This document shows positions 2,227 to 5,561 of a stretch of DNA of 12,303 nucleotides, piece by piece. Source of the DNA: a virus. Below the pieces are notes generated by a model. The model ran no database searches and was not told where the DNA came from. It saw only the letters and a list, made by a program, of their open reading frames with translations. The stretch lies in the UHGV virus genome UHGV-0113946. One strand, 5' to 3'. Position 1 is the first letter of the stretch. Each line of letters begins with the position of its first letter. Position numbers and translations under genes: made by a program.

Positions 2227-3117
2227 ATGAAGAAAAAATACGAACTGGTTGTTAAAGGGATAAATAATTACCCGGATAAGATTACTGTTACTGTGGCACT
2301 GGAAGTTGGTGGGTATCCGTCACTGTTGTTGCCAGATGTGGCGATTAGTCTTGACCGTACTGAAGGTGCCACGCTGGAGTTTTACGAAGCTGAGGCGAAA
2401 AAGCAGGCGAAGCAGTTTTTCATGGATGTTGCTGCCGGGTTATGTGAAGGGAACGAACCGTTGCCGGAAAAGCGCCCCATAATTTTAGAGGCGCAAAATG
2501 TGTTGATAACCTACAAAGGAAAGCTACCGGGAAGAATTACTGATTCTCTGAAGATGCCGCCGTCAACACTGCGGTCAGAAAAAGATGATGTTGAATCACG
2601 TATTGAAAAACTGGAGAGCTACGTCGTTGAGCTGAATAAGAAATGGTCGATATTGGTGCCTTCTGGCGATGAAAAGCAGTTTGCTGCGTTTGACGATTAT
2701 TGTCGGAAAGTGATGAGCAGAAATCTCGCAGAGTGTTTCAGTATTCATAATGATAATTTCAGTGAGCTGGAATGGGAGTGTAACCGGCCATCCTTTGTTG
2801 TATCCGGTGATGGTGGGAAAATAACCATCTCAGAAAATGGGAAAGTAACACCTCCATCGCACCAGCACAGTGAGGAGCTCATTGAATTTGCCATTGATTA
2901 CCTGAAGAACAATAAAAAACAGGGGCTGATGCAGCGCATTGGTCGTTGCATGGGGTATCTGCAGGTAGCCGCTGAGATTGAAGCGCTGGCCAGTGGTGCT
3001 GATAAGGATGCAGTTGTGCGGGAGACCGTTCTTCGTGATTTCAATACTCCACCCTTTAAGACTGAGCCTGATAACTGGATCCAGCCGGGGCTGACTTATC
3101 TTAAAGTGCGTATTTAG
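2227..3117 (+). CDS. Hypothetical cytoplasmic protein (296 aa) inserted between holin and endolysin; no recognised domain
   Basis: Long ATG-initiated ORF; GGAGAG Shine-Dalgarno 7 nt upstream, start only 4 nt after the holin stop; markedly AT-richer than the flanking genes (first 60 nt about 30% GC); no signal peptide or transmembrane segment; predicted coiled-coil segment near residues 115-140. Confidence 0.75.
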   Translation: MKKKYELVVKGINNYPDKITVTVALEVGGYPSLLLPDVAISLDRTEGATLEFYEAEAKKQAKQFFMDVAAGLCEGNEPLPEKRPIILEAQNVLITYKGKLPGRITDSLKMPPSTLRSEKDDVESRIEKLESYVVELNKKWSILVPSGDEKQFAAFDDYCRKVMSRNLAECFSIHNDNFSELEWECNRPSFVVSGDGGKITISENGKVTPPSHQHSEELIEFAIDYLKNNKKQGLMQRIGRCMGYLQVAAEIEALASGADKDAVVRETVLRDFNTPPFKTEPDNWIQPGLTYLKVRI

Positions 3118-3153
3118 TGGGCCAGGGACAGCGGCTGAATATTTAATATATCC

Positions 3154-3687
3154 ATGAACACCAAAATCAAATACGGCCTGTCGGCTGCCGTTCTGGCGCT
3201 GATTGCCGCTGGTGCGCCTGCGCCTGACATTCTCGACCAGTTTCTGGATGAAAAAGAAGGTAACCACACCACGGCATACCGTGATGGTGCGGGTATCTGG
3301 ACCATCTGCCGTGGAGCCACCCGGGTGGATGGTAAGCCTGTTATTCCTGGCATGAAGCTGTCGAAGGGGAAATGCGACCGGGTTAACGCCATTGAGCGTG
3401 ATAAGGCGCTGGCATGGGTGGAGAAAAACATCAAAGTGCCACTGACTGAACCCCAGAAAGCGGGAATTGCGTCATTCTGTCCTTACAACATTGGCCCCGG
3501 TAAGTGTTTCCCGTCGACGTTTTATAAACGAATTAATGCAGGCGATCGCAGGGGAGCGTGTGAGGCGATTCGCTGGTGGATTAAGGACGGTGGCAGAGAC
3601 TGCCGTATTCGCTCAAATAATTGCTATGGTCAGATATCCCGTCGTGACCAGGAGAGCGCGCTGGCGTGCTGGGGAATCGACAGATAA
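3154..3687 (+). CDS. R: SAR (signal-anchor-release) endolysin, lysozyme family
   Basis: N-terminal Gly/Ala-rich weakly hydrophobic segment (GLSAAVLALIAAGAPA) typical of SAR domains, followed by a T4-lysozyme-like catalytic E...D...T arrangement (DEKEGNHTTAYRDGAGIWT); position after the pinholin. Confidence 0.85.
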   Translation: MNTKIKYGLSAAVLALIAAGAPAPDILDQFLDEKEGNHTTAYRDGAGIWTICRGATRVDGKPVIPGMKLSKGKCDRVNAIERDKALAWVEKNIKVPLTEPQKAGIASFCPYNIGPGKCFPSTFYKRINAGDRRGACEAIRWWIKDGGRDCRIRSNNCYGQISRRDQESALACWGIDR

Positions 3688-3777
3688 GCAGAATATTTTG
3701 CTGAAAAATGACGTTGACCAACGCGGACGGATAACACGAAATCCTGCGAACTGGCAAAACCTAAGTGAATAAAAGTA

Positions 3778-3820
3778 AAAACCCCGTTTGTTGGCTGCAA
3801 GCGGGGTTTTGTGTTTCTGA
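3778..3820 (+). terminator. Putative intrinsic terminator downstream of the endolysin gene
   Basis: Stem aaaaccccg (3778-3786) pairs with cggggtttt (3802-3810), with further pairing inside the loop, followed by a T-rich stretch gtgtttctg; located about 90 nt after the R stop codon. Confidence 0.5.
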
Positions 3821-3843
3821 CCTTGGATAAGGCAAGGGAGAAC

Positions 3844-4026
3844 ATGGAAAAGTATAAACGAATTCTGTTGAGGTTGACTATGAAAAACGGCCTTGAACTG
3901 AAAGCGCCTGTAACTGATGACATCAGCAGAGCACTGGCTTTTGCCATTAAGTGGGTGGCGGTCGGTGTTGCTGTGTCCCCGATGCTGTATGGGCTGGCAA
4001 AACTGGTCATTGCGTTGAAATCGTGA
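3844..4026 (+). CDS. Hypothetical small membrane protein (60 aa), C-terminal transmembrane helix
   Basis: ATG at 3844 with AGGGAG Shine-Dalgarno 7 nt upstream; hydrophobic C-terminal segment [22 protein letters not shown]; lies between endolysin and Rz. Confidence 0.5.
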
Positions 4027-4040
4027 AGGGAGGATTAAGC

Positions 4041-4172
4041 ATGTCAGACAAACTCATAACGCTGGCGAAGATCCTCTGTGTAATTGTCGGCATTTCATTT
4101 TCACTAATGCTGGTTGCTCTTTTTCTTTCCATGGCCTGGATGATGTTGTCTTCGTCGGGGCTGCTGGGGTGA
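4041..4172 (+). CDS. Hypothetical small membrane protein (43 aa)
   Basis: ATG at 4041 with GGGAGG Shine-Dalgarno 7 nt upstream; almost entirely one transmembrane segment ([26 protein letters not shown]); its stop overlaps the Rz start region. Confidence 0.45.
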
Positions 4173-4669
4173 ACATAAACCGAATGCTTTCCGCGTTTAT
4201 CGTTATTCTGCTGGTGGCCTGTGGAGCGCTGTGGATGGCAACAGACCATTACCGTGATAACGCGATTACCTACAAAGCGCAGCGCGATAACAAAGCCAGT
4301 GAACTGAAGCTGGCGAACGCAACTATTACTGATATGCAGGTGCGCCAGCGCGATGTTGCTGCGCTCGATGCAAAATACTCGAGGGAATTAGCCGATGCGA
4401 GAGCTGAAAATGAAACTCTTCGCGCTGACGTTGCCGCTGGTCGTAAGCGCCTGCGGATCAACGCCACCTGTCCAGGCTCCGTGCGTGAAGCCCCCACCAC
4501 CTCCGGCGTGGATAATGCAACCGGCCCCCGACTGGCAGACACCGCTGAACGGGATTATTTCATACTCAGAGAACGGTTGATGACAATGCAGAAGCAGCTG
4601 GAAGGGGCGCAGGAATATATCCGCACTCAGTGCACTAAGCTGGCTTTTTATTATCCGGAGGATACATGA
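4169..4669 (+). CDS. Rz: Rz inner-membrane spanin (i-spanin), lambda-like
   Basis: N-terminal transmembrane segment then [14 protein letters not shown]...[10 protein letters not shown]...VAAGRKRL...[10 protein letters not shown]...[13 protein letters not shown], closely matching lambda Rz as recalled. Start is either GTG 4169 or ATG 4184 (ambiguous). Confidence 0.85.
4395..4580 (+). CDS. Rz1: Rz1 outer-membrane lipoprotein spanin (o-spanin), embedded out of frame within Rz
   Basis: [20 protein letters not shown] lipoprotein signal with lipobox Cys, then proline-rich [26 protein letters not shown], closely matching lambda Rz1 as recalled; entirely inside the Rz reading frame in a different frame. 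Confidence 0.8.
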
Positions 4670-4890
4670 AGAAATTACGGGTAACCGTAGAACCTTTTCA
4701 GGGAACAATTCCGTTCCGTATTTTGCAGCGTGGTCGTGTTCTTGTTGAAGGTTCGTTCAGTGGTAAATGTACGCAATTACACTCCCGGACCTTTCAGGTG
4801 AATGCCACGAATGAAGAGCTAACCGTGGAGTGTACGATGAATGCCGCTAAATGCCGCATGGTATCCGCTGCATTACAGCCAGTGTGTTGA
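4666..4890 (+). CDS. Hypothetical protein (74 aa) translationally coupled to Rz
   Basis: ATG overlaps the Rz stop codon (ATGA at 4666-4669); no recognisable domain; four Cys residues. Confidence 0.4.
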
Positions 4891-5228
4891 GCGACCTTAT
4901 TATCCATGCGCGGTATTGTCGCCGTATTCCTGCATTAACAGAGACCGCAGCCCGACAGGGAGACTCCTCTGCGCGAGTGTGCGGGGATAATCAAAAACGA
5001 TACACACCGGGGTTTACCGCGTTAACGGAGCGCGGCGTTGTCCCCTCATGGTCGCTGGTCCGGTGCGATGGTGGAAGAAACCGGACGATGTGTTACCTCG
5101 CATGACCTGTTATGTCATGTGTCTGATTTGTGATTTAAGTCGGATAATTGTCGTTGCCATTAAGCAGAGGATTGATGGCCGACAGGGTGGCATTGTTAGA
5201 ATAAGACTTATTCTTATCTGTGCCGGGA

Positions 5229-5561
5229 ATGAAAATGAAAAGAAATCTTCCGTTAATTATTTTGTTGTCTTCTCTGGTTATGGGCTGTACGCAACATAAA
5301 ACAGATATGCCCCGACAGTTGGTTAAGGCATTACCACAATATCCGGCCTATGCAGCGGCAAATTATATAAAGGGACGGGTTGATGTGAAGTTTGATATTG
5401 GTGCTGATGGTACTGTCACCCGAATTGAGTTTATCCGTTCAGAGCCGCACCATCTGTTTGATGAGCAGGTTGTAAAGGCGATGGCAAAATGGCGATTTGA
5501 GAAGGACAGGCCGCGTAAAGGCGTGAAGAAATCGTTTATCTTTAGTCCTTCTGCACCCTGA
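5229..5561 (+). CDS. Lipoprotein consisting of a TonB C-terminal domain (TonB_C-like), probable moron
   Basis: Signal peptide MKMKRNLPLIILLSSLVMG followed by Cys (lipobox-like LVMGC; residue +2 is Thr, not Asp). The mature region LPQYPAYAAANYIKGRVDVKFDIGADGTVTRIEFIRSEPHHLFDEQVVKAMAKWRFEKDRP aligns by eye with the E. coli TonB C-terminal domain as recalled ([61 protein letters not shown]). AT-rich relative to the flanks. Alternative starts at GTG 5220 or ATG 5235. Confidence 0.8.
   Translation: MKMKRNLPLIILLSSLVMGCTQHKTDMPRQLVKALPQYPAYAAANYIKGRVDVKFDIGADGTVTRIEFIRSEPHHLFDEQVVKAMAKWRFEKDRPRKGVKKSFIFSPSAP

Follow-up and report, generated by a model that had tools for sequence, protein, structure and literature searches.

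Between the endolysin and spanin genes of enterobacterial prophages, comparative analysis points to a mobile, portable module, newly recognised here, that is made up of a terminator-like hairpin and one or two genes for very small membrane proteins. We describe it from the UHGV virus genome UHGV-0113946, a stretch of 12,303 nucleotides (nt; hereafter the window) that is the late region of a lambdoid, Stx-phage-like prophage of Escherichia coli. Two open reading frames (ORFs), ORF1 and ORF2, follow the hairpin between the endolysin gene R and the spanin gene Rz, and ORF1 belongs to an undescribed family of enterobacterial phage proteins. Lysis of a Gram-negative host is usually described with three parts, a holin, an endolysin and a spanin; the ORF1 family is a fourth recurrent occupant of the lysis cassette, found behind its own hairpin whatever the endolysin or holin type. 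As for function, we favor, at a probability of roughly 0.4, the idea that ORF1 and ORF2 encode non-essential, late-expressed inner-membrane modulators of lysis. The module is broader than it first seemed, being common in enterobacterial prophages and carrying a hint of antisense control. Its features in the window are as follows.

3778-3810, no strand assigned: GC-rich hairpin with an A-run on its 5' side and a T-run on its 3' side, resembling a bidirectional intrinsic terminator (fold and terminator scan)
3811-3843, + strand: conserved leader (TTTCTGACCTTG..AAGGCAAGGGAGAA), carrying the Shine-Dalgarno (SD) sequence of the long ORF1 form (alignment of divergent loci)
3844-4026, + strand: ORF1, 60 amino acids (aa) long when started at ATG 3844; a shorter form of 48 aa, started at ATG 3880, is possible (phrog_1115; RefSeq WP_021566721.1)
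4041-4172, + strand: ORF2, 43 aa from ATG 4041 (RefSeq WP_001280932.1)
3851-3880, minus strand: hypothetical candidate sigma-70 promoter, with TAGTCA at 3880..3875 as the -35 and TATACT at 3856..3851 as the -10, separated by an 18-nt spacer
3772-3846, minus strand: hypothetical cis-antisense RNA of ~75 nt, starting opposite the ORF1 ATG, covering the SD sequence and ending in the hairpin plus a UUUUUACUUUUAUU tail

The hairpin and the two genes behind it

A reading of the sequence alone had proposed a strong hairpin terminator after the endolysin gene and, behind it, two ORFs of 60 and 43 aa that run into Rz. All of these are present, with the ATG positions moved by one to two bases (3844, not 3845, for ORF1). 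The hairpin, recovered both by folding and by terminator scan, has a 14-bp stem, a 5-nt loop and a free energy (dG) of -21.6 kcal/mol (z = -4.05; 0 of 200 shuffles were as stable), and a U-tract lies 3' of the stem on both strands, TTTTGTGTTTCT on the + strand and TTTTTACTTTTATT on the minus strand.

We judged the conservation of the hairpin from per-sequence folds; column-fixed counting of covariation on a hairpin alignment was abandoned because indels shift the stem register. A strong hairpin stands ~55-105 nt upstream of the ATG for M13, the thirteenth codon of ORF1, in every ORF1-family locus examined, and homologous hairpins have z values of -3.4 to -9.7. Most keep the arrangement of A-run, GC-stem and T-run with stems that differ by compensating changes (variants include CCCCGTTTG, CCCCGGCTG, CCCCGA.CG, CGCCCG.ACTG and GGCCCCGA), and both U-tracts are retained in the A/T-flanked homologous hairpins read. 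The Yersinia locus has an unrelated 20-bp hairpin without A/T tracts, and G.U pairs in the hairpins of the window, GER2 and Salmonella favor the + strand fold. The presence of a hairpin at every locus, with compensating stem changes, argues for a selected structure, and since it stays with ORF1 whether an unrelated endolysin or a tail gene lies upstream, it is part of the ORF1 module and not simply the terminator of the endolysin gene. On these comparative grounds the hairpin is a genuine, conserved terminator-like structure that forms the 5' boundary of the portable module; only 33 nt separate it from the ORF1 ATG.

Two further observations concern this 5' part. The possibility that the leader is a general expression cassette with variable cargo was rejected, as 29 of 29 distinct products behind the leader motif belong to the ORF1 family. 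In Stx1-type phages that carry an antirepressor gene between R and Rz, an unrelated hairpin (GGCACC-GTAAT-GGTGCC then TTTGTCATTT) follows R, at L003 1545-1600 and in similar loci; with another hairpin at the same place, a terminator after the endolysin seems to be kept even when the cargo differs.

ORF1 is certainly a real gene, as judged from its substitution patterns. Variable sites among close copies are distributed 2/2/14 by codon position, identity by codon position across 12 diverse homologues is 0.75/0.78/0.40, and comparison of the core (codons 13-60) with E. marmotae and Salmonella homologues gives a ratio of nonsynonymous to synonymous divergence (pN/pS) of 0.13-0.28, at pS values of up to 0.74. 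Three PHROG profiles, all of unknown function, match the protein over its full length (phrog_1115, E 1.4e-42; 4493, E 2.6e-30; 3246, E 4.5e-19). The conserved motif MKNGLE.DAPVT..IS belongs to a core that reads MKNGLE.DAPVT.EIS.A.A.AI[KR] across the family, whose members are 45-62 aa long, and the C-terminal helices vary (..ALKS, ..AIRWW, ..PLIxALK).

Where does translation of ORF1 begin? The good SD sequence that had been attributed to each ORF holds for ORF2, where GGAGG at 4029-4033 has an excellent 7-nt spacing, and not for the first ATG of ORF1, where GGGAG at 3836-3840 has a spacing of only 3 nt and is poor. The internal ATG at 3880 (M13) is preceded by GAGG at 6-nt spacing and is kept in 12 of 12 diverse aligned homologues; this internal SD sequence and start suggest two isoforms, of 60 and 48 aa. 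An ATG or GTG lies 11-12 codons upstream of M13 in all but two homologues, and the N-terminal peptide pattern Y-[KR]-[RK]-x-[FIL]-x-x-[RM]-L-[ST]-M is retained in remote relatives, so the long form, which has ~three more net positive charges than the short one, is probably translated. Each ORF had also been described as essentially one transmembrane (TM) helix. That description suits ORF2 and applies to ORF1 in part: hydropathy and AlphaFold give ORF1 a basic amphipathic helix at residues 2-15 and a long C-terminal helix at 25-59, and the hydrophobic part of the latter, which contains two Lys and a Ser-Pro, is marginal at a summed dG of +3.9, comparable to the signal-anchor-release (SAR)-like segment of the endolysin. 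We model ORF1 as a tail-anchored small inner-membrane protein, predicted to lie N-in.

ORF2 is predicted to be a very hydrophobic single-pass membrane peptide (TM ~11-33, N-in), with a mean Kyte-Doolittle value of 2.9 and a summed Hessa dG of -3.8 over residues 11-29, and it matches one PHROG profile of unknown function at full length (phrog_4906, E 2.1e-23). Comparison with relatives makes it very probably a real gene. Against the copies in two cassettes with unrelated endolysins (L212 and L214), pN/pS is 0.37-0.38 at pS 0.55-0.58, and between these two copies there are 11 synonymous changes against 2 nonsynonymous ones; the ratios in the other forward frames are 0.65-2.4. At ~65% identity in such cassettes, the length, start, SD sequence and hydrophobic profile are kept, and the changes are mostly synonymous or conservative. 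Close alleles are ambiguous (15/10/15 by codon position, pN/pS ~0.5). Conservation had been suggested as a check on both ORFs, and coding-type substitution patterns are indeed found in both. Both are annotated coding sequences ('hypothetical') in RefSeq and in recently deposited phage records.

The module is also found in naturally rearranged forms (P0090, P0092, P0094, P0114; contexts c57 and c94; L005 2792-3033). One has the order ORF1-ORF2-ORF1', with residues 23-60 duplicated; frameshift fusions connect the TM helix of ORF2 with the C-terminal helix of ORF1, yielding two-TM proteins of 79-83 aa; and in another form a different small TM ORF precedes ORF2 and an ORF1 remnant follows it.

Spread and gene context of the module

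ORF1 DNA is present in 1560 of 5426 complete E. coli genomes (~30%) and ORF2 in 1659 of the same 5426, frequently as multiple copies and at up to 7 places per genome. Relatives of ORF1 were found in Escherichia and Salmonella, by profile search in Yersinia enterocolitica, Klebsiella aerogenes and metagenomic phages, and by genome scan in Lelliottia. The profile search covered 1.84 G proteins and gave 23 hits, from which 13 sequences were fetched; these 13 all proved to be small proteins that resemble ORF1, or fragments, as did the rows known from an earlier search with ORF1, and the hits beyond the set inspected and scanned against Pfam are a few short ones and two long multi-stretch ones (928 and 4413 aa). 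Among the GTDB species-representative genomes, a first scan gave no match and a second gave only Lelliottia wanjuensis. This scarcity is consistent with an accessory prophage gene, and the Qin cassette of K-12, which was checked directly, is without it.

The gene context was classified in ~300 fetched loci, a redundant set, and by hand inspection. The dominant order is endolysin, ORF1-family gene, (ORF2), i-/o-spanin: by redundant count, ~194 loci have a GH24 endolysin, ORF1, ORF2 and Rz, 36 have a GH108 endolysin, ORF1 and ORF2, and 19 have an endolysin, ORF1 and Rz. At least six endolysin types precede ORF1, M15-peptidase, GH19-like, 140-aa and 265-283-aa endolysins among them, and the holins of these cassettes differ too (PF04971; PF16080; PF16931 with PF05449). 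For example, hairpin-ORF1-ORF2 stands behind a GH108 endolysin in E. marmotae (L212) and behind an M15 peptidase endolysin (L214), in both cases with holins of other families and with an unrelated flank on the upstream side of the hairpin; in Salmonella, where ORF2 is absent, a different lysozyme and Rz flank hairpin-ORF1. In loci that lack ORF2, the spanin gene begins 1-19 nt after the ORF1 stop. Synteny across related prophages was a further check proposed in the sequence-only reading, and the position in the lysis cassette proves to be kept far beyond the window prophage; by association, a role in lysis is therefore the leading idea.

Several loci carry ORF1 relatives or other small ORFs in settings of their own. 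On the chromosome of Y. enterocolitica (L218-L220), an ORF1-family gene and Rz are accompanied by a DUF4222 gene and an IS110 transposase gene and adjoin host genes (tmcA, a SopD-like gene and a hydrolase gene); the same 49-aa ORF1-family protein is encoded on >1000 Y. enterocolitica contigs, and a prophage lysis-cassette remnant seems to have become fixed in this species. The remnant is preceded by a perfect 18-20-bp inverted repeat and by TGGTATAAA, an extended -10-like motif on the + strand. In Salmonella, L216 2305-2668 holds two tandem ORF1-family paralogues of 64 and 55-64 aa, flanked by a nanS-p-type esterase gene upstream and a DUF1353 gene downstream, with no recognisable lysis cassette, and L207 2723-2812 holds a very hydrophobic 29-codon ORF (MICFVAAFMLACDGRSGWGWFLLVGLIVM) that lies upstream of the hairpin, its start overlapping the lysozyme stop codon (ATGA), and may be another micro-membrane-protein gene. 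In the GH108/M15-type cassettes L243, L212, L214 and L261, the place of Rz after the module is taken by an ORF of 60-65 aa with a signal peptide and a lipobox (..AILVPFLLVGC..), truncated to 34 aa in L212, which could encode an o-spanin-like or other small lipoprotein.

Possible functions of ORF1 and ORF2

How would the two genes be expressed? The terminator had been taken to mean that they are expressed separately from the holin and endolysin genes S and R, a view that our results do not bear out: the promoter scan found no + strand sigma-70-like promoter anywhere in 2900-5400 or in any other context scanned, and the hairpin belongs to the ORF1 module. A + strand promoter between the hairpin and ORF1, or one based on the -10 TATAAA at 3853-3858, was considered and rejected, since a usable -35 is missing from every lineage and the scan turned up nothing. 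Terminators of this kind do not stop Q-modified RNA polymerase in a lambdoid late operon. Given this read-through, the lack of a + strand promoter and the short gap between hairpin and ORF1, we take it as the default that both genes are co-expressed late, together with S, R and Rz. The compensating stem changes of the conserved hairpin, and the G.U pairs that favor its + strand fold, also speak for late expression. By analogy with established lambdoid biology, Q-antiterminated late transcription would thus pass through the hairpin, and the hairpin would block unmodified polymerase in the lysogen.

On the reading that we favor, ORF1 and ORF2 would be transcribed within the late operon from pR', with the hairpin read through by Q-modified polymerase and non-antiterminated transcription blocked in the lysogen, and both proteins would accumulate in the inner membrane beside the pinholin, the membrane-tethered endolysin and Rz. 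There they would modulate lysis through its timing, membrane energisation or spanin function. ORF1, N-in and tail-anchored, would use its cytoplasmic MKNGLE.DAPVT motif as a functional surface, and ORF2 would be a simple N-in transmembrane peptide gained in the Escherichia lineage. Position supplies the strongest evidence: the ORF1 family recurs as a fourth occupant of the cassette, packed against the spanins and independent of holin and endolysin type, and it is for this reason that we favor modulators of lysis. If ORF1 and ORF2 do tune lysis timing or spanin action, phage release would be affected, including that of Stx-type prophages, in which lysis timing governs toxin release.

A number of points weigh against this reading. 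The proposed role in lysis comes from gene neighborhood only, and since no single holin or endolysin type is favored, a specific protein partner is not indicated. Many lambdoid cassettes are without the module (in K-12 Qin, rrrQ overlaps rzpQ directly), and a minority of ORF1 relatives lie outside lysis cassettes, after tail-fiber or tail genes (L210, L211, L221, L226, L228) and after the nanS-p esterase gene (L216). No Pfam match, to a holin or otherwise, was obtained for ORF1 and ORF2 at E 0.01 or for 11 ORF1 relatives at E 10, no inspected near-full-length ORF1 profile hit resembles a holin, and each ORF has one hydrophobic helix, not the two or three transmembrane domains (TMDs) of class I and II holins. 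About 10% of ORF2 copies are frameshifted. Additionally, a weak similarity of ORF1 to pinholin TMD2 (p ~0.006) is limited to one subfamily. As for known families and earlier work, searches of NCBIfam and PADLOC likewise gave no match to either ORF, the literature searched yielded nothing on the two ORFs, on their accessions or on the interval between R and Rz, the two peptides are absent from the supplementary files searched of the Sakai small-gene ribosome-profiling (Ribo-seq) paper, and the hairpin and leader are absent from those searched of the paper on Hfq crosslinking and analysis of cDNA (Hfq-CRAC) in enterohemorrhagic E. coli (EHEC).

The TMD2 similarity had suggested that ORF1 might be a decoy of the pinholin, an idea that we rejected: the match consists of 7/16 BLASTP identities with the shuffle p value given above and was judged to be chance or convergence, the C-terminal helix varies by subfamily, and GER2- and L005-type relatives have no similarity (p > 0.9). 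Another observation behind the decoy idea is P0120, a 59-aa protein on a 554-nt ENA contig, in which the N-terminus of a P21-type holin (TMD1 to ..VSPSQW) is fused to the C-terminus of ORF1, the junction being the short stretch where holin TMD2 and ORF1 are alike; the chimera could be a real recombinant or an assembly artefact.

Known lysis proteins offer partial precedents for small membrane modulators of this kind. LysA of phage P2 is reportedly an accessory lysis-timing membrane protein encoded between the endolysin K and the spanin equivalents LysB/LysC. LysA is non-essential and membrane-embedded and has the same cassette position as ORF1 and ORF2, which makes it their closest positional analogue; it is much larger and multi-spanning, whereas ORF1 and ORF2 have one hydrophobic helix each. 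The lambda S105/S107 and P21 S68/S71 proteins are holin/antiholin dual-start pairs, small inner-membrane lysis proteins with starts 2-3 codons apart. ORF1 resembles these pairs in its two in-frame starts (M1 and M13), each with an SD sequence, and in the more positive charge of its longer form, but its starts are 12 codons apart, it has one marginal TM helix against two or three TMDs, and it lies outside PF04971 and any other holin family. The Mu gp25 releasin (DUF2730, PF10805) is a non-holin membrane-tethered lysis factor of 99 aa that has its TMD at the N-terminus, in an N-out/C-in topology, and its family occurs with both SAR and cytoplasmic endolysins (PMC9239132). Like gp25, ORF1 is small, non-holin and membrane-tethered, has a cytoplasmic domain and is encoded with lysis genes; a further point of likeness is the endolysin of the window, whose SAR-like segment follows a basic N-terminus. 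ORF1 differs in being 48-60 aa long with a C-terminal anchor and a predicted N-in topology, and no Pfam family, PF10805 included, matches ORF1 or ORF2.

Among the alternatives, the one that survives best, unlikely as we hold it to be, is that the module is a moron or lysogenic-conversion cargo. Morons are known from lambdoid phages, e.g. HK97 gp15 and lambda bor/lom. Here, the unit would be insulated by its terminator and separately regulated, its small membrane proteins would serve the lysogen, for example in superinfection exclusion, and the R-Rz junction would be a permissive slot. The module is indeed a small extra unit with its own terminator, a mosaic distribution, presence or absence between otherwise adjacent genes, and a deviant composition (GC content of 0.47 vs 0.54 for R and Rz). 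The junction itself is variable, empty in K-12 Qin, filled by an antirepressor in Lys8385Vzw and by alternative cargoes in L003 and L004; ORF1 relatives occupy classic moron sites after tail-fiber genes, with terminators on both sides in L210 and adjoining HicAB-like ORFs in L221; and the ORF1-Rz remnant of Y. enterocolitica sits beside chromosomal genes. Unlike morons, the module has its terminator upstream of the genes and not downstream (a downstream terminator-like site is seen in L210 and L212 only), it has no detectable + strand promoter of its own in any context scanned, and it strongly prefers the endolysin-spanin junction, where most distinct family members lie 1-19 nt from the spanin genes, an arrangement that looks like operon membership. 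No PADLOC defence model matches it.

Does the 5' part of the module also encode an RNA? The minus-strand promoter-like site lies inside ORF1 codons 3-13, and the promoter scan finds T[AG]G[TA]CA-N18-TATA[CA]T at the homologous place in three loci; the minus-strand -10 is TATACT or a perfect TATAAT in 11 of 12 diverse homologues, the perfect form being that of L227, L228, L230 and L243. Transcription from this site would reach the hairpin after 35-60 nt, and the antisense RNAs predicted and folded for 13 homologues are 72-107 nt long. The first 12 codons of ORF1 are conserved at the nucleotide level, with a third-position identity of 0.68 vs 0.40 in the core and a pS of 0-0.14 vs 0.5-0.7, and CGA, AGG and TTG, which are rare or minor codons in E. 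coli, barely vary within TATAAACGAAT..TGAGGTTGACyATG across the 12 diverse homologues. That the terminator, the leader and these 12 codons together encode a cis-antisense RNA of 72-107 nt, making the module a widespread riboregulated small-membrane-protein switch within the lysis cassettes of temperate enterobacterial phages, is a tentative proposal, doubtful on balance. Such an RNA could prevent a toxic lysis modulator from being made in the lysogen or select between the 60-aa and 48-aa isoforms, and it would add a layer of RNA control to a late operon thought to be run by Q antitermination and holin timing alone. Coding and ribosome-binding-site (RBS) constraints alone may explain the N-terminal nucleotide conservation.

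A more specific version, to which we give slightly less credence than to the moron alternative, is that ORF1 is an antisense-controlled toxic peptide, akin to type I toxin-antitoxin (TA) systems or to P22 sar. The minus-strand RNA, made from a constitutive promoter, would pair with the SD sequence and start of the long ORF1 and would either silence leaky expression in the lysogen or set the late 60-aa/48-aa ratio; as a regulatory layer, this would be compatible with a role of ORF1 and ORF2 as lysis modulators. There are precedents for both halves of the idea: hokW of the hokW-sokW pair is a small prophage membrane toxin that aids phage release (PMC8621323), and sar RNA of P22, 68/69 nt long, is antisense to the ant ribosome-binding site (PMC12197685). 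The ORF1 locus has a similar layout, with a hydrophobic peptide in the size range of type I toxins (<60 aa; ORF1 48-60 aa, and ORF2 also matches in size and hydrophobicity), a predicted antisense RNA over the RBS and a terminator end. The conserved promoter-like site and the predicted bidirectional terminator could together form a type I antisense gene; site and hairpin accompany ORF1 in every context examined, the -10 is perfect in four lineages, the N-terminal codons are constrained as described, and the A/T-flanked hairpins read have an extended A-rich 5' flank (AAAAnnAAAA-like), needed only for minus-strand termination.

These features have competing explanations. The promoter-like site matches the consensus at only 9/12 positions with an 18-nt spacer, a quality expected by chance ~2.5 times per 2.5 kb, and the same bases encode the internal SD sequence, the M13 ATG and the conserved peptide, which could explain the constraint. 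The G.U pairs of the window, L004 and L207 hairpins favor the + strand fold, and the Yersinia copy has TATACC and the hairpin without A/T tracts. In contrast to type I TA loci, the antisense RNA is predicted only, and neither a dedicated toxin promoter nor a long structured leader is evident. Rfam gave no family at the gathering score, only a sub-threshold minus-strand hit at 3768-3842, and no type I TA family was matched in Rfam at that score, in Pfam or in NCBIfam.

Finally, it is very improbable that ORF1 and/or ORF2 are non-functional, either chance ORFs in a mosaic spacer or decaying remnants: close alleles of ORF2 lack third-position bias, its antisense frame is also open with a similar ratio, and frameshifted, fused and duplicated variants are common, but ORF1 is under strong purifying selection across genera and the features of ORF2 are preserved at ~65% identity beside unrelated endolysins.

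Surrounding genes

The remaining genes of interest in the window, the first four of them upstream of R, are these.

7-1329: SASA/DUF6645 esterase gene
1511-1930: DUF826 protein gene
ending at 2222: P21-type class II holin gene (PF04971)
2227-3117: gene for a 296-aa DUF1327 protein, between holin and endolysin
3154-3687, + strand: endolysin R, a GH24 phage lysozyme with a SAR-like N-terminal segment (PF00959, E 6e-24; phrog_7)
4184-4669, + strand: Rz (i-spanin), the downstream border of the module (PF03245, E 3e-49; phrog_13)
4395-4580, + strand: o-spanin lipoprotein Rz1, read in the +1 frame within Rz (PF06085, E 1.5e-21)

The upstream border of the module is the endolysin R, whose segment 5-23 is weakly hydrophobic (summed Hessa dG +5.5) and preceded by a basic N-terminus (K4, K6). 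Downstream, the Rz ATG at 4184 lies 11 nt past the ORF2 stop, and an alternative GTG at 4169 overlaps that stop; a PF03245 i-spanin with an embedded PF06085 lipoprotein gene is a two-component spanin, and the start of Rz1 is likely ATG 4410.

The 2227-3117 protein, with an N-terminal DUF1327/YdfR domain, a long extra C-terminal part and a full-length match to phrog_1085, marks a second cargo slot within the same lysis cassette, where relatives have shorter YdfR-family versions and a small opposite-strand gene. Beyond Rz, the start of a 74-aa ORF at 4666-4890 overlaps the Rz stop codon (ATGA); of the 291 positions of phrog_2571 this ORF matches only 100-172, and it is therefore probably a truncated gene fragment. 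Further on, the 113-aa product of 5220-5561 combines a signal like that of lipoproteins (LSSLVMGC) with a TonB C-terminal domain (TIGR01352, E 8e-15). The PHROGs label of 'Rz-like spanin' for its family looks like a mis-annotation, and the product could be a phage-encoded TonB mimic.

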